DNA of 64,000 nucleotides from Acidimicrobiia bacterium (GTDB lineage: Bacteria > Actinomycetota > Acidimicrobiia > Spongiisociales > ZC4RG35), in the NCBI GenBank assembly GCA_965215185.1, contig OZ244034.1:960001-1024000 (forward strand). The letters run 5' to 3'. The translations under genes and the position numbers were made by a program. Numbering within the stretch: position 1 is the first letter of the stretch; each line of letters opens with the position of its first letter. Below, one piece after another: positions 18,176 through 46,945 of the stretch. The notes beneath the pieces are model-generated. The model searched no databases and was not told where the DNA came from. It saw only the letters and a program-made list of their open reading frames with translations.

Positions 18176-18478
18176 GCCTGTATACATGTCTGTGTGAGGT
18201 GGGTTCTCTGAATCGCACCGATGCTCCTATTTTTGTCAAATTGATGCTTCTATGATCTCCAAATCGGGTTCGGGGGGTGGGTGGGCGTTTCGGTGGAGGG
18301 GTGGTTTCGGGGGTTGGTTGGTGGGTTTTCGAGGAGTCGGTAGAGCTGTCGGGCGATGTACCGTTTGAGACAGCGGCGGGTTTCGCGGGTGGTTTTGCCT
18401 TGGCTGGTGCGTTTGCCGATGTAGGCCCGGGTTTTGGGACAGTATCGGGAGCGGCTGATGGCGATGGTGTGGATGGCT

Positions 18479-19955
18479 TGATGCTCCTATGGTTGTCAAA
18501 TCGAGTTTTGGTGGGGTGTGAGGGTGGTGAGCCATTGGTGGTATTGGGTGGCGAGTTGATGGTTGTGGTAGATGCCTCGCTCGAGTTGTGAGAGGCGTAC
18601 TGGGTAGGTTTGTAGGGCTGTGGCGGCGTGGGTGAGGGTTGTTAGCGCGTTTTTGCGTAGACAGCGAAGATGGGCGCCGTTGGGAGTTTCGGGTGGATTG
18701 GTGAGCAGGTGGTAGATCTGGCGGGCGATGTGGCGTTTCAGGCAGCGGATGATCTCCCGGCGGTTTTTGCCTTCTGTTTGTCTTTTTTGGGCGTAGGCGA
18801 TGGTGGTCTGGTCGTAGCGCATGCGGGTGATGGCGATCCGCCACAGGGCATTGTTGGCTTGGCGGTTGCCGCCCCGGTTGAGCCGGTGGCGTATGGTCCG
18901 TCCCGACGACGCCTGGACGGGACTGGCGCCGCACAATGCTGCGAAGGACGCTTCCGATTGCATGCGTTCGGGGTTGTCACCGGCGGTGACCAACAGGGCA
19001 GCGGCGGTGTCGGCGCCGACTCTGGAGGCGGCTAACAGCGCCGGGTTGACCTGGGCGCAGAGATGGTTGATGTCGGTGGTGAGTTCTTCGATCTCGGCGG
19101 TGAGCGCCTGATATCGGCGGGCCAGGGAACGCAGCGCCTTTTTGGCGTAGGTGACGGTGATGGTGGCTGTTCGGGAACGGAAACCGGCGCAGGCCTTGAC
19201 GCGGGCTTTGGCCGGCAGTCTCTCTAGCTGGTGTTTGACCTGGTCGGGGGCGGTTACCACCAAAGCGTGCAGCTGGTTTATGGCCTGGGTGCGGGCTTTG
19301 GTCGCCGAACGGCGGGCCACCGAAAGCATCCGTATTGCTTCCACTCGACCGTTGCCGCTTTTGGGCACTGCGGTGGCCTGTCCGTTGAGAACCGCCCGTG
19401 CCGCTCCTTGGGCGTCGGTGGCGTCGGTCTTGCCCAACCGGCGGCGCAACTGCCGGTTGGGACGGTTCACCTCTGTCACCTGACACCGGCCTCGGTTAGA
19501 TAACGGGCCAGACCGGCGCCGTAACTGCCGGTGCCCTCTATACCGACCCGGACCACTCGACCGTGTGACCCCAACCAGTCGCCCAGTTGCTGATAACCGG
19601 CCGTGTCGGCCACGAAGGGGGCTGTTCCCAGGACCCGACCGGTGCTGTCCACCACCGCCGCCATGTGAACATCCCGGTGGGTGTCCACCCCACCGCACAC
19701 ATCTACCTGCTGACCTACTGACATGAACAATCCTCCTTGGATAGAATTCTGGCTAATCACCCAGACCCGGTGGCGGGTGGACAGACCACTCAGAATGAGG
19801 GAGAAGCAAAGCTCCTATCAGGTCACATCCGCCCACGGGTCGGGTGAACATCCCCCAGCCGGAAAACAGGCCGACAGATCAAGCCAAAGGCACAACGGCC
19901 AGGTTGAGTTTGGGTCAGACCTGCCCCGGCCTAGGGGCCCTTACAAGTATGAGTG
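18479..19955 (-). mobile_element. IS110 element A (CA core at both ends), recombinase frameshifted
   Basis: CDS 19724-18496 with a frameshift near 19484; GVDTH, EGTG, KTDATDA, SSG motifs; C-terminal HTH-like tail. Confidence 0.9.
19760..19940 (-). ncRNA. Putative bridge RNA of IS110 element A (ends approximate)
   Basis: Segments 19910-19902 and 19885-19880 match the insertion target; 19818-19811 and 19792-19787 match the element ends. Confidence 0.8.
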
Positions 19956-20859
19956 GTTGAGTTGGCGGTCGCCGCGTCGGTTCAGTCGGTGACGGGTGTG
20001 TTGTCCCGATGAGGCTTCGAGTGGTGCTACGCCGACTAGACGAGCGAAGGCGGCTTCGTTGCGGCAGCGGCGAGGATGAGACCAGGCAATGAACACTTGG
20101 GCGGCTGTGATAGGGCCGATCCCGGGTTGTTGGAGTAGCTGGGGAGCTACGGTTTGGACCAGTTCGGTGATAGTTGTTTTGAGTTCGGTTGCTTCGGTGG
20201 TGAGTGCGTGGATTCTCCGGGCTGCAGAACGCATCGCCTGTTTGGTGGCGGTGTGTTCGTTGGCCGGTGCTGATCTGAGTCGGAACTTGTGGCATTTGGT
20301 GACCAGGGCAGCAGTGCTCAGGTCACGCAGTTGGTCTCTGAGGTCAATGGGCGCGGTCACTAGGAGGGCTTTCAGTTCGTTGATCGCCGATGTTCTAGCT
20401 GTTATGGCACCACGGCGGGTAGTTTCCAGTACTCGTAGGGCTTCTCGTTCTCCCCTGGCCCGCGGTGTGGGAGGCCGGGAGCGGCCCAGCGCCTGGCGGG
20501 CGGCCCGGCGAGCGTCCAGTGCGTCGGTTTTGGCGCCGTCTCCGGTTGTTGGGTTGGGGTTGTTGAATTCTGTTACCCATTCACCTCGAGCGGCGAGATG
20601 GCTGGTCAGGCCTGCTTCATAGCTACCGGACCCTTCAACAGACCACACGCGACTGGCGGTCTGGGTGTGCTGGTCTGCCCATTTCAACAACCGGTCGTAT
20701 CCCACCCTGGTGGTCTCGAACATTGCGGATGCTTGTTCTCCGGTGGTGGCAGTGTCAACTACTGACGCGGTGACCCGATCACGGTCAGGATCGATTCCGA
20801 TCACATGCTCTACCGTTGTGGCCAACATCAGGACATCTCCCTTCTTCTTTGCGAACTGG

Positions 20860-21075
20860 GTTGTGCCCCGGCTGAGGCGCGATCCGCGAACGGCAGGACT
20901 GTGATGAGTCACACCCCTTTGGGGTGGACAGGCTTCTGATTAGGCCAGCGCGGTACGCCAGGTCGGCGCTGGTGGTCAATGTCGGACAGATCATAGGAAA
21001 GACACCAATCCGGGTCAGTCAAATTTAGGGTCACGACATCACTACCAGCACCGAGCCTGAGAACCTCCAAGAAGG
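20860..21075 (-). ncRNA. Putative bridge RNA of IS110 element C (ends approximate)
   Basis: Shared scaffold TGACC..GTGTCTTT..ATCTGTC; guides AAATTTGAC, CCTATG, AGAAGC, TCACAG. Confidence 0.72.
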
Positions 21076-21097
21076 GCACCCCCCCATATTCTCACAG

Positions 21098-21178
21098 TCA
21101 AATTGATGCTTTTATGATTTGGAAATCGCTTTTCGGGGGTGGGGGTTATTTGAGCTTTTTGGTGGGGGGTTTTCTAGT
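21098..21178 (-). mobile_element. 3' tip and right end of a second C-type IS110, truncated by IS481
   Basis: LENPPPKSSNNPHPRKAISKS* followed by AAGCATC end. Confidence 0.7.
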
Positions 21179-22109
21179 TGTCCTTCCCATGGACGTGGTT
21201 GACAGAATGCTTGGATGAGTGAGGGCCTCCTGGTTTGATTCGTGGGATAAGCAACAGTCCTCGAATCAAAAGGAGGCCCTCGTGAGAACCAACTGTAGAA
21301 AGTTGACACCGTTCGGGCGTAGGTTGTTGGTGGATCGGATCCTCGAGTTGGGTTGGCCGGCGGCTCGGGCCGCTGAATCGGTGGGAGTGTCTCGGCAGAC
21401 TGCCTATCGGTGGATGAGACGCTGGCGGGAGGAAGGAGAGGCCGGACTGGAGGATCGCTCCAGCAGGCCTCACCACAGTCCCAATCGGGTCTCTTCTGAG
21501 ATGGAAAAGCGGATCGTTTCGGATCGGATCACAGAGAAGGAAGGCCCCCATCTGATGGCCGGACGGCTGGGTGTACCGCGGTCGACCATCTACGGGGTGC
21601 TCGCCCGCCGGGGACTGTCCCGCCTCTCCGACTTGGACCGGACCACCGGCACACCGATCCGCTATGTGCGAGACTGCCCAGGTGAACTGGTCCACGTGGA
21701 CATCAAGAAACTGGGCAAAATACCTGATGGAGGCGGGTGGCGGGTCCTGGGCCGGTCTCGGGCTAATCCCCGTCAAAAGGTCGGATATGAGTATGTGCAC
21801 TCCATGGTCGATGACCACACCCCAATGGCCTACTCAGAAGCCCTCGACTCCCAGGACGGCCCAACCTGCGCCGGGTTCATGCTCCGCGCCGCCCACTGGT
21901 TCGCCACCTACGGGTATCGCATAGACCGAGTAATGACCGACAACGCCATGGCCTACCGCCGAAGCCGACCCTTCGCCGATGCCCTCGCCCAGATCGGCGC
22001 CGCTCACAAACTGATCCGACCCTACCGACCCCAAACCAACGGGAAAGTGGAACGCTTCCACCAAACCCTCCTCGGAGGATGGGCCTACAAACAACCCTAT
22101 ACCACCAAC
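21179..22109 (+). mobile_element. IS481-family element, 3'-truncated (transposase from GTG 21282)
   Basis: TGT terminus, LTPFGR, HVDIKKLG, TDN, PQTNGKVERF; hairpin over the RBS; cut at YTTN by an IS110 left end. Confidence 0.88.
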
Positions 22110-22150
22110 CACTCATACTTGTAGGTGGAGTTCCCCCGTTATTAAGGACA
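22110..22150 (+). mobile_element. IS110 A-type left-end footprint followed by an IS3-like terminal repeat
   Basis: CACTCATACTTGTA identical to A and B left ends; TGGAGTTCCCCCG resembles the end at 45337. Confidence 0.65.
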
Positions 22151-22440: not shown

Positions 22441-24065
22441 GCGGGCACCTCGTGGACGGACGGTTGATGTCCGATCTCACCGGGGGGAAGGTAGCGAGAG
22501 CCTTTTCGCTGTCAAGCGTTCCCCGACAATCCAGTTGGGCAACCCCGGCTACTACCGGCAAGACGAGAAGTTGCTGGTTTGGGATTTGAAAGGAGTGTGC
22601 CCTGGCTGACGAACCGCGGGTCGAGGAACGGCGGAATGGCCCGGCGGATCTAGGGAGGCAAAGGGGAAACGACACCGGAGAAGCCCACACACATCCTCTG
22701 CGGGGGGATAGGCGAAGTTGCCTACACAGGCGTATTCGTCAGAGAGAAGGTCCAGATTTTCTACCTCTACGGAGACAACTGCCTGATCTTCTGCGCAGCG
22801 ATAGCGCCCCGCAACTAGCCGACAGCCAACAACACCTACTCCATGTACCCGCCTGAATCGCGCCGGGTTTCAGTTTGTCCCAATCGGTGCCATGGAAAGG
22901 GTTTGCCCCTTCAGATGTGTAGGTAGCGGTTCCAGTGTTCCATTAGTTGGCGGCGTTGTTCTAGCAGGTCGGTTCGGGCGTAGGCTTTTTCTACAGCGTT
23001 TCGGATTTCGTGTCCGAGGGCCCGTTCGGCGACTTCCCGGTTTACGCCTGTTTCTCCGCACCAGTCTCGAAACGAGCTTCTCATCCCGTGTGGCACACAA
23101 CCCACCTGGTTCTCCTTGCAAAGTTTGCTCATAGTGGCATTGCTCATTGTCCGTCCGGTGGGGGATGGGAAGATCAAACCAGTGCTGGTTGATGTTTGGC
23201 GTGCGGTGAAGAGAACCTTTAGTGCCCCGGTGCTGAGCGGAACCCGGTGTTTTGTCCGGTTTTGGTGTGTTCTGGGGGGATTGTCCAGGTTGCTGTGGCA
23301 AGGTTAATCTCGTCCCATGTGGCGTTTCTGACCTCCCCGCTACGGGTGGCGGTGAGGGTGAGGAATGTGAAAGCGGCGATGGTAGCCCAGTGAGCGTCGG
23401 TGGTTTCGACAGTCCGTATTGCCGTGGCGACTTGGCTGTGGTGGAGGGCTTTCATGTGTTGGGGTCGTTGGGTGTTGGAGCCCAGGGCGGCGGTGATACG
23501 GTCGTCGGCTGGGTTGTTCTCTCGGAACCCCTGGGCGATGCACCATTTCATGACCGCGGCGATCCGTTGTTTGACGCGGCGGGCCGTTTCGGGTGTTGTG
23601 TGCCATATGGGGGTGAGGCAGGCCATGACATTGGCTGTGGTGATTTGGTCCACCCGTTTTTTCCCAAGGTGAGGATAGGCGTAGGTGTGGAGGGTTGACC
23701 GCCAGTGTTCTTCGGACCTGCCGCCAGGTTTCCATTTGGCGGCGTGAAGCTGGATTACTTGTTCGGTGGCCTGGCGAAAGGTGGGTGCTTTGCGGGGGCG
23801 GGGGTTGCGGCCTTCTGCGATGGCTTGGCGGTTTCGGAGAGCCCGCCGGCGGGCTTCGGCGAGGGTGACTGCTGGGTAGCTACCCAGGCCCAGGTTGGTG
23901 TATCTGCCGTTGATCTGGTTTCGTTGTGCCCAGGTTTTGGAGAGTCGCCCCTGGATTTTGGTTGGTTTGACCAACAGAGAAAGTCCATGGCCGCCTCGGC
24001 CGTCGCCATAGCGTCCGGGTTGGGTCACTGTTCTAACGAAAGATGCTGTGAGTGTTGGTGAGCTC

Positions 24066-25094
24066 CTATGTCAAAATCGGGGTTGGTTTTGGTGGTTGGA
24101 GGTGGGTCCAGATGCGGTCTGAGATTCGGCGTTTGAGGACGCGTATGGCGTCTCTGTGGGTCTTTCCTCGGGTGATGAGTTTCTGGTAGTAGCGGCGGCC
24201 TTCGCTGTCTGCGCGGGCGATCTGGGTCAAAGCGGCGGTGTGGATGGCCCGGTTTAGTTGGCGGTTCCCACCCCGGTTGAGTCGATGGCGTACTACTCGT
24301 CCGCTGCTGGCTTCGATGGGTGCGGTGCCGTTGGCCATGGCGAACTTGTCTTTGGTCGCATAGCGGTGTGGGTTGCCCACCTCCGAAAGGATGGTGGCAG
24401 CGACCAGTACACCCACCCCGTGAATGTCTAGTAGACGGGTTTCGGATTGGTCGACCAGTGTTTTGATCTCGGCGGTGAGTTGTTTGATCTCGGTGTCCAG
24501 TTGTCGCAGTCTTCGGATGCGTTGTTTGGCTACCCGCCCGTGGGGGGTGGTGTCCCGCCAACACAGTTTCATGGCCTGGTCGAGGGCTTTTCGGGTGGTG
24601 AGCCGGGGAATGTTCTGGTGGTAGCCTGGTCGGAGTTTCCCCAGGTCGGCGTGGAGCCGGTTGGCCTGGGCGGTGCGGTCTTCTACCAGTTCACGGCGGT
24701 ATGAGACCAGCACACGGAGGTCTTCGGTGTCCTCCCAAAACGTCGGCGGGGCGAGCGTGTTGTCTCGGAGAGCGACCCTGGCGATCACCCAAGCGTCGAC
24801 CTGGTCGGTTTTGGTCTGGGTACGGCCCCGGCGCCGGACCTGGGCGGTCAGCTGCGGTGGAACCTCCCGGATGTCCAGACCAGCGGCCATAGCGGCGACC
24901 GCGGCTGGGCGGCCGAACGTGCCGGACCCCTCGACCGCTACCCTGGCGGCGTTGGTGGTGTGAGCCCAATCTATGAGTTGACGGTGACCAGTAGGGGTGT
25001 TAGCGATGGTCCGGTACTCCAGGGCGGTGCCCAGGTGGTCTACCAAACAGGCAGAAAGGGTATCCTTGTGCGAGTCGATCCCGATAACGAACAT
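24066..25094 (-). CDS. IS110 family recombinase, intact
   Basis: GIDSHK, VEG, KTDQVDA, ASSG, HRLNRGGNRQLN. Confidence 0.93.
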   Translation of the reverse strand: MFVIGIDSHKDTLSACLVDHLGTALEYRTIANTPTGHRQLIDWAHTTNAARVAVEGSGTFGRPAAVAAMAAGLDIREVPPQLTAQVRRRGRTQTKTDQVDAWVIARVALRDNTLAPPTFWEDTEDLRVLVSYRRELVEDRTAQANRLHADLGKLRPGYHQNIPRLTTRKALDQAMKLCWRDTTPHGRVAKQRIRRLRQLDTEIKQLTAEIKTLVDQSETRLLDIHGVGVLVAATILSEVGNPHRYATKDKFAMANGTAPIEASSGRVVRHRLNRGGNRQLNRAIHTAALTQIARADSEGRRYYQKLITRGKTHRDAIRVLKRRISDRIWTHLQPPKPTPILT

Positions 25095-25119
25095 GGTTCA
25101 ATCCTCCAATTTCGGGGGT

Positions 25120-25305
25120 TTGCGGGAGCGGCAGAAGGCTCGGCGAAGCGCATCCATGCGTCGAAACAACACCCCCACAGGGGGCAGATACAAGTCACGC
25201 TCCTATCAAGCGACAACACCGAGCGGGCAACCGGTGGGGAGACACTCACTAACTAAGCCACCACAATGGGGCAGGGTCGTTTGGAGTCATCCCCACCGGC
25301 ACTGC
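25120..25305 (-). ncRNA. Putative bridge RNA of IS110 element D (ends approximate)
   Basis: CCGGTGGGGA/TCCCCACCGG stem encloses guides AAACGACC and TTAGTG; donor guides ATAGGAGC and ACGCATG. Confidence 0.8.
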
Positions 25306-25511
25306 CACACCCCAACATATAACACGCATGGTCGTTTCACCCCTGCTTCTCCCTGTCCGCCAATCCAGAGAAGGTCCGGTACCGCCGACTATTTCTAGTG
25401 TGGGTTACTTCGATAGTTATCAACATTGCAATGCGATTAGGTGCAACCCCGTGAGACTGTCTGGAACTACCTAGGACACCAATACCCTGTTGACCTGGGC
25501 AAATATGAACC

Positions 25512-25826: not shown

Positions 25827-25866
25827 AATGGGCGAATTTGGCCATCTACCTGGTTAAAGACGGGGT

Positions 25867-25908
25867 CTCATAGTCCGTTGGTTGCAGGTTCGAGTCCTGC
25901 CGGGCCCA
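25867..25908 (+). other. 3' half of tRNA-Ile2/Met (CAT), att-site remnant
   Basis: CTCATA anticodon loop, GCAGG-TTCGAGT-CCTGC T arm, CGGGCCC-A acceptor strand; no matching 5' half. Confidence 0.8.
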
Positions 25909-26084
25909 CACCGTTCCACCTCGTTCCGTGGGGTTTCACGCATTGCTAAACGCCCAGGTCAGAGGCCCCATTTGCATTCACAGTGGCACTGACATCCCCC
26001 GCATATGGCGTTGCTGAATTCCCAAGTTGTTTCTGGTAGTTTCATCTCATTGTGGGGCAGCATGGAACAGAATAGGGGGCAGAA

Positions 26085-45644: not shown

Positions 45645-46866
45645 CACTCATACTTGTAAAGGCCTCTAGGCCGGGGCGGGTCTGACCCTTACGAAACCTG
45701 GCCTTGTGTCTTTAGTTCGATCTGTCGGCCTGCTTTCCGGCCTGGAGGCGCAGCATTCCTGACTGGGACGGGATGTGACCTGATAGGAGCCTTGCTTCTC
45801 CACCACCGTGAGTGGCCTGCCCACCCGCCCCGGGTCAGGGAATACCAGGCGATTCTATCCCCAAAAGGAGAAAAGGGATCATGTCAGAAGATCGTAAGGT
45901 TGACATTTGTGGTGGGGTTGATACCCATCGTGATGTTCATGTGGCTGTGGTTGGTTGACACCGCCGGGCGGGTCTTGGGCTCGGCGCCGTTCACAGCCGA
46001 CTATGAGAAACTGGGCGACTGGTTACAGTCCCACGGCAGCGTGGTCCGAGTTGGGGTGGAGGGCACCGGTAGCTACGGCGCTGGCCTGGCCCGCCACCTA
46101 ACCAGAGCCTGTGTCAAGGTGGTGGAGGTGAACCGTCCCAACCGGCAGCTGCGCCGCTTCAGGGGCAAAACCGACATCGTGGACGCTGAGAACGCCGCCC
46201 GGGCTGCTCTCAGTGGGCAGGCCACCGCCCAACCCAAAAGCGGTGACAGACCAGTCGAGGCGATCAGAATGCTGGGGGTGGTCCGTCGTTCGGCGATCAA
46301 AGCCCGCACCCAGACCATCAACCAACTACACGCCCTGGTAGTGACCGCTCCCGAGCAGGTCAAACACCAACTCGGGGAGCTAACCCCCAAAGACCGCGTC
46401 AAAGTCTGTGCCGCTTTTCGTCCCCGCCCAGATGACACCACCATCGCCTATGCCAAACAAGCGCTACGCATCCTGGCCCGCCGATATCAGACGCTCACCA
46501 CCGAAATCACAGAACTCGACACCCACATCAACCGTCTCTGCGTCCGAGCCAACCCGGCACTGTTAGCCACCCCAGGGATCGGCGCGGACACTGCCGCCAC
46601 CCTACTGATCGCAGCCGGTGACAACCCCCACCGCCTGCACTCAGAAGCGTCCTTCGCCGCCCTGTGCGGCGCCAGTCCCGTCCAGGCGTCCTCGGACAAA
46701 CCATACGGCACCGGCTCAACCGCGGCGGGAACCGCCAAGCCAACAACGCTTTGTGGCGCATCGCCATCACCCGCATGAGCTACGACCAGACCACCATCGC
46801 CTACGTCCAAAAACGCCAAACGGAAGGCAAAACCCGCCGGGAGATCATCCGCTGCCTGAAACGCAC
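45645..46866 (+). mobile_element. IS110 element B (A-type), recombinase from 45881 frameshifted, right end lost
   Basis: GGVDTHRD, EGTG, KTDIVDA, ASSG; left end homologous to element A. Confidence 0.87.
45660..45840 (+). ncRNA. Putative bridge RNA of IS110 element B (ends approximate)
   Basis: Scaffold and donor guides shared with A; target guides TACGAAACC and AGTTCG differ. Confidence 0.78.
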
Positions 46867-46945
46867 TCAACCGTTGCTGTACTGCCCCGACCAGCCCGTC
46901 AGCCGAGCGCAAATGGCCTCGTTCATAATCAGATCCCTTCCCTAA
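46867..46945 (+). pseudogene. C-terminal SLH-domain fragment
   Basis: YCPDQPVSRAQMASFIIR*. Confidence 0.6.

Follow-up and report, generated by a model that had tools for sequence, protein, structure and literature searches.

Bridge RNAs of the IS110 group are best introduced through IS621 of E. coli (Durrant et al. 2024, PMC11208160; Hiraizumi et al. 2024, PMC11208158; PDB 8wt6). In the portions of these two papers used here, the first loop of the IS621 RNA reads the target and the second reads the donor, 8-9 nt of the bottom strand being paired by the 5' side and 4-7 nt of the top strand by the 3' side. The same portions describe handshake guides and a circle junction that creates a promoter, and solved structures show the bridge RNA bound by the recombinase (PMC11208158). 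ISCro4/IS622 (10.1101/2025.05.14.653916; PDB 9t56) belongs to the same family; the part of that report considered here gives a dinucleotide core and handshake rules under which positions 6-7 are unmatched before exchange. For ISEc21/seekRNA (Siddiquee et al. 2024, PMC11187229), the sections consulted state that both circle formation and targeting require the upstream non-coding region and that there is no target duplication. The IS1111 group has the same recombinase family and is also RNA guided; as outlined in PMC11208160, its elements carry subterminal inverted repeats and have a long right end, in which the guide RNA is located.

The window analysed here, that is, the whole stretch of 64,000 nt from an Acidimicrobiia bacterium, contains four elements, A, B, C and D (Table 1). 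With a probability of about 0.9, we read them as IS110-group insertion sequences in which a left end of ~230 nt, upstream of a DEDD/Tnp recombinase gene, encodes a predicted bridge RNA. Judged by its sequence, the predicted RNA is of a known kind, the IS110-group bridge RNA, represented by new members in a little-studied bacterial group. A sequence-only reading of the window had placed four left ends sharing a scaffold, with D as a diverged version, and a script confirmed its coordinates to the base: counted at the shared C, they lie at 19955 (A, -), 21097 (C, -), 45645 (B, +) and 25330 (D, -). The scaffold common to A, B and C is TGACC-[11 nt]-TG(G/A)CC...GTG(C/T)CTTT-[6 nt]-ATCTGTC; D has the same layout but different stems. 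The four elements carry four different guide pairs, consistent with the proposal in that reading of four differently programmed bridge RNAs, which had overlooked a fifth A-type left end preserved as a short stub.

The identity of the elements is clear, the family being placed by Pfam and phmmer matches to IS621 and ISCro4. PF01548 and PF02371 are both found in D, in the 5' part of C and in the intact A-type copy E7. Recombinase alignments retain the GxD, E-TG-Y, KTDxxDA and SG motifs, which we take to contain the catalytic residues. In phmmer searches, the IS621 transposase 8wt6 was matched at E = 1.7e-14 and 9e-20, and the D recombinase matched ISCro4 9t56 at E = 3.2e-17; the Acidimicrobiia and IS621 recombinases are distant, with only the two domains aligning. 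The distance from the left end to the ATG is 231-239 nt in six complete A-type copies, and the stop codon lies at most 15 nt from the right end in A and within the right end in D. All three empty sites recovered equal left flank plus right flank with one C counted once, leaving no multi-base target duplication, and no inverted terminal repeat was seen on reading the ends by eye. Thus, the elements have the features of the IS110 group: DEDD (RuvC-like) and Tnp domains, a long non-coding left end with a short right end, and site-specific insertion. In the IS1111 group, as described in the part of PMC11208160 cited above, the long end is the right one, whereas here the long non-coding end is the left. 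ISEc21 resembles the Acidimicrobiia elements in lacking a target duplication and differs in host phylum and scaffold, a comparison based on its published description rather than on sequence. The relatives are Acidimicrobiia, which agrees with the actinobacterial lineage that had been suggested from the sequence. The set contributes a GC-rich actinobacterial clade; dozens of its guides are naturally reprogrammed, and it includes the compact intact D (1,270 bp, 342 aa).

Table 1. Features of the IS110-group elements in the window (positions are those of the whole stretch)
Feature	Position	Strand	Remarks
Element A (IS110 group, A/B type)	18481..19955	-	inserted in recombinase gene of element C
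X, left target guide of A	19902..19912	-	11-nt loop segment CAAACTCAACC
Y, right target guide of A	19880..19886	-	TGGCTTG; GGCTTG at 19885-19880
Left donor guide of A	19811..19818	-	ATAGGAGC, equal to right end ATAGGAGC-AT-C
Right donor guide of A and handshake	19785..19792	-	TGAGTG at 19792-19787, then GT at 19786-19785
-10 box of A, left end	19946..19951	-	CATACT; script check
-35 box of A, right end	18494..18499	-	TTGACA; script check
Recombinase gene of A	18496..19725	-	broken by frameshift near 19487
Predicted bridge RNA of A	19760..19940	-	from consensus folds and pair counts; putative start just downstream of -10 box
Element B (A/B type)	45645..46870 (end approximate)	+	left end at 45645
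Guides of B	X 45688-45698; Y 45714-45719; 45783-45790; 45809-45814	+	X CTTACGAAACC; ATAGGAGC at 45783-45790; TGAGTG at 45809-45814
Element C (C type), split by A	18243..21097	-	shared C at 21097; left end TGTGAG...
Target guides of C	X 21028-21018; Y 20997-20992	-	X CTAAATTTGAC; Y CCTATG
Donor guides of C	left 20938-20932; right 20904-20899	-	left CAGAAGC; right TCACAG
Right end of C	18254-18244	-	...CATAGAAGCAT
Element D	24060..25330	-	shared C at 25330 and 24060; 1,270 bp
Recombinase of D	24066-25094	-	intact, 342 aa
Target guides of D	X 25284-25275; Y 25253-25247	-	X CCAAACGACC; Y GTTAGTG
Donor guides of D	left 25206-25199; right 25161-25155	-	left ATAGGAGC; right ACGCATG
-35 box of D	24074-24069	-	TTGACA
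Fifth A-type left-end stub	22109..22123	+	~18 nt; terminates IS481-family transposase reading frame

The reading frame of element C resumes on either side of A, and elsewhere in the genome a 78%-identical paralogue carries a second copy of A at the same codon. The shared C of A stands at 19955 and again at 18480; the left end begins ACTCAT... from 19954, and the right end terminates ...ATAGGAGCAT at 18481, GGAGCAT being its last bases (18487-18481, -). Its predicted bridge RNA is laid out as a 5' hairpin, a target-binding loop, a middle hairpin and a donor-binding loop. The last 9 nt of the X segment equal the left flank plus the shared C, AACTCAACC at 19910-19902 (-) matching ...AACTCAAC-C at 9/9, and the reverse complement of Y equals the right flank CAAGCC(A) at 6/6, or 7/7 with one extra base. 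The left donor guide repeats A's right end, ending two bases short of the shared C, and the right donor guide, TGAGTG, is the complement of C-ACTCA at the left end. Both the target matches and this second pair had been noticed in the sequence-only reading, and both were reproduced by script. The bases after Y, AT (19879-19878), are complementary to the AT before the shared C at A's right end and are invariant within the family, and the GT after the right donor guide (19786-19785) is complementary to the AC preceding the shared C in the target. The empty site had been given as AACTCAAC-CA-AGCC. The flanks do match X and Y, but the site is a reconstruction; sharing is demonstrated for the single C alone, by the three empty sites of other family members. 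At A's insertion place, paralogues of C that lack the interruption have CAACT(C/A)AAC-CG-(C/A/G)GCC, and the base after C in A's original target may have been G rather than A.

In the mechanism that we propose, the 5' side of the first loop (X) carries the sense of the target's left half and would pair with the bottom strand, and the 3' side is complementary to the target's right half. The second loop corresponds in the same manner to the element's own joined ends, the right one through ATAGGAGC and the left one through TGAGTG, and the two bases after each right guide would pair with the partner DNA once the strands were exchanged (the handshake). Transcription would proceed from a promoter present only when right and left ends are joined in the excised circle, and the bridge RNA so made would, by analogy with IS621, bind the recombinase and direct strand exchange. 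Most of this plan is shared with IS621 as presented in the papers above: a homologous recombinase, an RNA encoded in the long left end upstream of the gene, the order 5' hairpin, target loop and donor loop, two-base handshake guides after the right guides, and a promoter at the right-left junction. Unlike IS621 in those descriptions, the Acidimicrobiia elements have an extra hairpin between the loops, use X in two registers and leave one or two bases before the C unmatched by the left donor guide. The differences from ISCro4/IS622, at the same depth of description, are as for IS621.

The guides were compared with insertion flanks in a sample comprising the window's genome (12 copies) and 80 related Acidimicrobiia loci. 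The scaffold pattern was matched by 46 of these 80, the other 34 being left out of the analysis; together with the 12 copies from the window's genome, 60 scaffold matches were obtained, namely 55 elements with a recognised left boundary and five without. X was scored in the better of two registers, in cognate and control pairs equally. Across 31 site/guide classes, it matched the left flank at 7/9 or better in 27, at 8/9 or better in 19 and at 9/9 in eight, with a mean of 7.55/9 against 3.71 (sd 1.29) in 832 non-cognate pairs. For Y and the right flank, 22 classes (41 elements with a right end) gave a perfect match in 10 and at least 4/5 in 15, the mean being 4.0/5 versus 1.40 in non-cognate pairs. 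The donor-loop handshake behaved in the same way in 29 classes, target position 7 being paired in 27 and position 6 in 20. For X, for Y and for the handshake alike, none of 20,000 shuffles reached the observed value; site classes are related by descent, so that these shuffle counts are not true probabilities. The target-loop handshake, assessed by reading, pairs AT with donor AT in the A type and AG with donor CT in D. Two loci fit poorly, L014 and L063, with flanks at 3/9 for X and 2/5 or 1/5 for Y. Thus, in other copies too, X and Y vary in step with the sequences flanking the insertion, and the matches exceed chance, since throughout the family both segments change as the flanks do.

Could the left end be a mere structured 5' leader that controls recombinase expression, its flank matches arising from similar repeated sites and shared descent? 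Many copies do lie in the same repeated targets, with 13 elements in one site class, the classes are not independent, and the single-sequence fold of A is unremarkable. Yet different guides accompany different flanks over 31 classes while non-cognate pairs stay at the low mean given above, both sides of the site are tracked, on opposite strands, together with the handshake pair, and the same pattern recurs in three scaffold types (A/B, C and D). We therefore regard a leader without guide function as extremely improbable. The bridge-RNA reading is also supported at the donor side: ATAGGAGC occurs in the donor loop of 50 of 54 elements in which this loop was located, the right end terminates ATAGGAGCAT in 39 of 40 elements with a right end found, and the left end begins ACTCAT in 54 of 55. 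Since donor guides hardly vary within a type, their support comes from identity and from between-type differences rather than from within-type covariation; D and C have their own matching pairs of donor guides and ends. A bridge-RNA code can be recovered from raw sequence, and the diverged copies of one genome suffice to prove it by natural covariation.

The consensus fold leaves X and Y unpaired on opposite sides of an internal loop bounded by a 13-pair outer stem and a 3-pair hairpin, which fits the earlier suggestion that these segments lie in loops. Over 29 sequences, 97% of cells in the outer stem are paired and four pairs are doubly changed; the 14-pair stem closing the donor loop has 85% of cells paired and nine doubly changed pairs. 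Overall, 89.5% of cells are paired, as against 41-54% when the sequences are slid, and 17 of 38 pairs are changed on both sides. RNAalifold recovered the target loop on eight and on 29 sequences. It did not recover the donor-loop stem unaided on the 29; this stem comes from the fold of eight sequences, and its pairs were counted afterwards. In the 29-sequence run, the right donor guide was instead paired to bases 1-6 of the left end. This pairing is the guide-donor complementarity itself and was set aside because these bases would be absent from an RNA starting after the -10 box. Folded alone, A shows no clear excess of stability (z = -1.93; seven of 200 shuffles fold as well), and its minimum-energy fold pairs part of X with the Y side; single-sequence folding is uninformative for A. 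A search of the whole window with Rfam at gathering thresholds gave no match, to which we attach little weight.

Joining the right and left ends of A creates TTGACA-17 nt-CATACT, as had been deduced from the sequence. In silico, the 17-nt spacing holds in 38 of 38 family members with both ends found, the -35 box being TTGACA (29), TTGCAA (7) or TTGTAA (2) and the -10 box CATACT, CATAAT, CATAGT or CATGAT. RNA ends and circle junctions were sought in 24 public runs, which consist of assembled contigs that can show neither of these, nor the strand, and in which uncovered parts prove nothing. In two RNA libraries from one study, the sole contig on D spans 25082-25265, the left-end non-coding region, although DNA contamination of these libraries is possible; the DNA runs cover the whole of D. 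This is a weak hint that the left end of D is expressed. No back-joint is among the joints listed; the sole one listed, in a single contig of low depth, jumps from 24344 to 24641 and has no relation to the element ends.

Sequence covariation cannot separate RNA from DNA, the contig on D is no more than a weak hint of a transcript, and the internal segments might act as DNA, the left end pairing with the target (e.g. as a single strand in transposition) or providing att-like homology, with no transcript. This is very improbable on several counts. The stems framing the guides are rich in G-U pairs: at four positions of the outer stem, for instance, 17-25 of the 29 sequences have one. Such pairs are weak in DNA and would turn into C-A mismatches on the opposite strand, so that their abundance makes the fold specific to the sense strand. 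The promoter is placed to transcribe exactly the left-end region in all 38 elements, and the recombinases are homologous to that of IS621, whose RNA is seen in structures. Furthermore, in contrast to an att core, the guides are set 45-170 nt into the element, and opposite strands are read by them. An RNA read from the left end thus remains our preferred interpretation of the guides.

A real departure from the described systems is at the crossover. In IS621, as set out in the papers above, a CT dinucleotide is common to donor and target and covered by all four guides, whereas in this clade donor and target share a single C (3/3 empty sites recovered) and no dinucleotide is covered by the four guides together. 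The base after the shared C is A in the donor and G, A, C or T in 11, 6, 4 and 1 of 22 target classes. At the left junction this base is always A (55/55), and at the right junction it follows the target guide (21/24). A two-base core, consisting of the C with either the next or the previous base, was rejected, as in neither case do donor and target agree. That the left donor guide stops 1-2 nt short of the core had been remarked on from the sequence and holds more widely: it matches the base two positions before the shared C in none of 50 A-type elements, and in D it ends one base short. X pairs in two registers one base apart; a rule for the choice was sought in the second base of the right guide and in the end of the flank, and none held.

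From these data we tentatively put forward, as a possible though doubtful reading, that the clade recombines at a one-base crossover, the single C. The base after it would be programmed separately in the target and donor guides, the left junction always keeping the donor's base and the right junction the target's, and the left target guide would work in either of two registers. In the same tentative reading, many guides target sequences conserved in other IS110 elements (in right ends the -35 region, in left ends the donor-guide region, and conserved recombinase codons), so that the elements nest in one another and not in host genes. If true, a one-base crossover implies a cleavage geometry or single-strand transfer route unlike that at the two-base CT core of IS621. 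The literature consulted names only dinucleotide cores, which is no proof that a one-base core is unpublished. CazIS110-1 (10.1101/2025.10.25.684509) and half-match recombination by IS621 (10.64898/2026.08.31.748434) may explain the deterministic junctions (single-strand, top-strand insertion) and the one-guide sites (C, C2, L014, L063). The clade offers a natural experiment on the core, with targets of all four bases after the crossover C in use and a donor that keeps A; a free post-C base, if confirmed, would relax the matching-core rule that limits the site choice of IS621-type tools. Nesting in each other's conserved parts bears on how elements persist without harm to the host. As an observation in its own right, many copies are found nested inside other IS110 elements.

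The remaining elements in the window differ in how well their guides still fit. In B, X matches the left flank at only 6/9 and the right end is lost. In the C type, X matches the left flank at 7/9 or better in six of six copies with three different guides, and Y fits the right flank at one of five variable positions in C and at two of five in C2. An extension of the right end of C to ...CAATTTGA was considered and rejected: its ...GATTTGGAGATCATAGAAGCAT lines up with the right end of the A type, and C2 and C3 have this end too. CAATTTGAC is repeated on both sides of C, which the proposed model does not explain. In D, X fits at 8/9, Y at 6/7 in D1 and D2 and at 7/7 in the third copy, and the donor guides at 8/8 and 7/7.

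The recombinase genes of A, B and C are broken, that of B by several frame breaks and the loss of its 3' end, and that of D alone is intact within the window; the sequence-only reading had likewise called the D recombinase intact. D exists in three identical copies in the genome, of which D1 and D2 have both flanks in common. These facts would suit a view of the four window copies as fossils that record past insertions, with no RNA made or used today and with D multiplied by duplication of its surroundings rather than by transposition. [quoted passage not shown] Such a view bears on present activity only and not on the identity of the sequences. Read as bridge-RNA elements, D alone in the window looks able to move on its own, and A, B and C look like relics whose guides still record their landing sites. 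An empty paralogous site for D, which likewise speaks against the fossil view, is found at genome position 896986.

The IS110-family elements of the window lie at 18.0-25.4 kb and again at 45.6 kb, in a genome of 3.12 Mb with 60.7% G+C, and among the best 80 of 352 related stretches the nearest relatives of these insertion sequences are found in Acidimicrobiia metagenome-assembled genomes. Their left ends fall into three scaffold types (A/B, C and D). The genome carries 12 A/B-type left ends (75-86% identity) at different places, six C-type left ends and three identical copies of D. Based on the IS621-like layout of the left ends, the handshake pairing, the junction promoter and the similarity of the recombinases to those of IS621 and ISCro4, we consider it about 90% probable that A, B, C and D encode four differently programmed bridge RNAs. 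The sequence-only reading had proposed this, and guide-flank covariation, loop structure, handshake and recombinases all support it. The kind is already known, since bridge RNAs are predicted in most catalogued IS110 elements according to the available text of PMC11208160; the window elements are new members.

IS110-group elements of the window, guides and junction boxes of element A, and empty targets elsewhere in the genome
Feature	Position	Strand	Remarks
Element A	19955 to 18481	-	nested in the recombinase gene of element C
Element C	21097 to 18243	-	reading frame resumes on either side of A
Element B	45645	+	diverged relative of A; several frame breaks, 3' end lost
Element D	25330 to 24060	-	intact 342-aa gene, PF01548 + PF02371
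Fifth A-type left-end stub	22109-22123	+	15-base search; CCACTCATACTTGTA, then about 3 further matching bases
A, left target guide X	19910-19902	-	AACTCAACC
A, right target guide Y	19885-19880	-	GGCTTG
A, left donor guide	19818-19811	-	ATAGGAGC
A, right donor guide	19792-19787	-	TGAGTG
A, -10 box	19951-19946	-	CATACT
A, -35 box	18499-18494	-	TTGACA
Empty E11/E12- and E7/E5-type targets	2,519,241 and 2,507,888; 1,545,652, 911,690 and 1,110,180 (genome)		

On rechecking, every coordinate and match reported earlier for the window proved exact. The left flank of A finishes ...AACTCAAC-C and the right flank starts C-AAGCCA; thus X matches 9/9. For the reverse complement of Y the score is 6/6, rising to 7/7 when it is extended by a base. 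Only the reconstructed empty site is soft, at the base following C. C paralogues lacking an insertion at this place read CAACT(C/A)AAC-CG-(C/A/G)GCC, with CG in an Arg codon, suggesting that the target base following C may have been G, which could still pair with the guide U.

To follow the guides across the family, one genome per species was searched with three intact A-type proteins, and the best 80 of 352 related stretches were taken. Of these 80 loci, 46 fitted the scaffold pattern, the other 34 being left out; adding the copies from the window's own genome brought the hits to 60, and in 55 of these the left boundary could be recognised. Each class below comprises copies that agree in both guide and flank. 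In this set, X agrees with the left flank at no fewer than seven of nine positions in 27 of 31 classes (mean 7.55 versus 3.71, sd 1.29, in 832 non-cognate pairs; the better of two registers was scored for cognate and control pairs alike), and the five variable positions of Y agree with the right flank at four or more in 15 of 22 classes, perfectly in 10 (mean 4.0 versus 1.40). Each observed mean was attained in 0/20,000 shuffles, a count that is not a probability because the classes are related by descent. Thus, X and Y covary with the insertion flanks in other copies. All six C-type copies, with three different guides, score at least 7/9 for X, and the three that have a right end score 4/5, 2/5 and 1/5 for Y, the window's C being the lowest. 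For D, X matches 8/9, Y 6/7 in the window copy (D1) and in D2 and 7/7 in D3, and the donor guides 8/8 and 7/7. Poor X fits are B (6/9) and two clear misses among the related loci, L014 and L063 (3/9 each). L014 has almost the guides of A, yet is located in a ACTGAAATC-CG-ATGAGCC site, perhaps following recombination between two elements.

In IS621, as far as the available text of PMC11208160 describes it, the bridge RNA recognises the target through its first loop and the donor through its second; within each loop, 8-9 nt of the 5' side pair with the bottom strand and 4-7 nt of the 3' side with the top strand, and the circle junction creates a promoter. The left ends of the window elements have this layout (PMC11208160, PMC11208158). 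The predicted promoter recurs with 17-nt spacing in 38/38 elements (own genome and best 80 of 352), and the recombinases match IS621 (8wt6) and ISCro4 (9t56) in the PDB. The family also shares the two-base handshake guides, which in IS621 adjoin the right guides and, once the strands have been exchanged, pair with the partner DNA (PMC11208158). The two bases 3' of TGAGTG pair with target position 7 in 27/29 classes and with position 6 in 20/29 (own genome and best 80 of 352), which was attained in 0/20,000 shuffles. Directly 3' of Y, the A type has AT, opposite donor ...AT-C, and D has AG, opposite donor ...CT-C.

In the RNAalifold folds of 8 and of 29 left ends, X and Y lie across from each other in a single internal loop, which is closed by a long outer stem and by a hairpin of three pairs. 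When the fixed structure was counted on the 29 sequences, 89.5% of cells were paired, versus 41-54% with the partners slid, and 17 of 38 pairs had changes on both sides. Pairing reaches 97% in the target-loop stem and 85% in the donor-loop stem, with nine doubly changed pairs in the latter; the donor stem was not recovered unaided in the 29-sequence RNAalifold fold. The many G-U pairs assign the fold to the sense transcript. Folded alone, A is weak (z = -1.93), with X paired to the Y side. Transcription and activity of the left-end RNAs are inferred by analogy with IS621. The only expression clue, a hint, comes from two metatranscriptome libraries of one study, where the sole contig on D spans only 25082-25265, the left-end leader, with three differences; DNA runs cover D along its full length. 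In one of the two metatranscriptome runs, the D-leader contig continues into a differently programmed target loop.

The crossover departs from that of IS621. Whereas donor and target of IS621 share a CT pair, a single C is shared here: all three empty sites equal left flank plus right flank with one C counted once. Among elements of the own genome and the best 80 of 352, the base preceding the left end is C in 55/55, and the left end begins ACTCAT in 54/55. At the right junction, the base following C is G in 11 classes, A in 6, C in 4 and T in 1 (22 classes, same set), and in 21 of the 24 distinct pairs it is the base that the right target guide specifies. Given the constant left end and a right-junction base set by the target guide, the junctions are deterministic, which would not be expected of a staggered two-base exchange between unlike cores. 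Cleavage directly after C would fit, as would single-strand transfer of the kind proposed, in the available preprint text, for CazIS110-1 (10.1101/2025.10.25.684509). Unlike in IS621, X is found paired in either of two registers that differ by one base, each in about half of the classes; a rule for this choice was sought among the classes and none was found. Also in contrast to IS621, the match of the left donor guide ends before C is reached, with two intervening bases unmatched in the A type and one in D, in agreement with the earlier observation that it stops 1-2 nt short of the core. ATAGGAGC is present in 50 of the 54 elements with a located donor loop (own genome and best 80 of 352), and the base after it matches donor A, two bases before the shared C, in 0/50. 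This variant geometry is worth a bench test. In one contig, two copies share guide and site but differ immediately before the shared C, with T in L077 and A in L078; the guide has A there and the donor T, so that the T would be expected if the donor strand sometimes supplied this base.

Many of the guides are directed against other IS110 elements. A and a second copy occupy the same conserved codons in two C-type recombinase genes, and L089 also lies within conserved recombinase codons. The A/B-type copies E2, E6 and E8, together with C and C6, lie within the GATTTGACAAA (-35) portion of right ends. C2 interrupts the left end of the A-type element E9 at its right-donor-guide region, the two elements having opposite orientations (genome 2,343,753-2,345,313; L004). 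The guides of C2-C5 read AG[A/G]CCACTC plus CACGGC or CAAGTC, and look programmed for the conserved donor-guide part of A/B-type bridge RNA genes. The sites of C and C2, which fit just one guide, are reminiscent of the half-match insertions of IS621 described in the available text of 10.64898/2026.08.31.748434. A triple nest of A-type elements occupies genome 1,095,700-1,099,100 (L003). The intact E6 (408 aa) interrupts the right end of E7 within its -35 part; E7, likewise intact (404 aa), in turn interrupts the left end of the oppositely oriented E5, where the left donor guide of E5 starts.

The surroundings of C are a pile of nested IS110 insertions. C is bordered on both sides by CAATTTGAC (18222-18243 and 21098-21170, -). 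On the upstream side, another C-type copy has left a right-end remnant (...CATAAAAGCAT); on the downstream side, the right-end remnant is that of a further element (...AAAAATAGGAGCAT) and is followed by CGGTGCGATTCA, a flank that several other right ends of the genome also have. The stub of the fifth A-type element, the remainder of which is missing, terminates an IS481-family transposase frame (21219-22124; LZ_Tnp_IS481 + rve). D1 precedes a tyrosine-integrase gene (23219-24028, -) with Arm-DNA-bind_3, Phage_int_M and partial Phage_integrase domains by about 30 bases, and D2, elsewhere in the genome, shares these flanks. Near 25,860-25,920 there is a stretch similar to the 3' end of a tRNA, but Rfam gave no tRNA. 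Two types of empty target are themselves short repeated sequences, namely, cactccccACTGAAATC-CG-ATGAGCC (E11/E12 type) and CTATGAAAC-CCGGCACGGTTCA (E7/E5 type). The former adjoins 11 elements among the best 80 of 352 stretches (L031-L041, L080, L092), 10 in one Spongiisociaceae genome and one in a Spongiisociaceae genome of another species.
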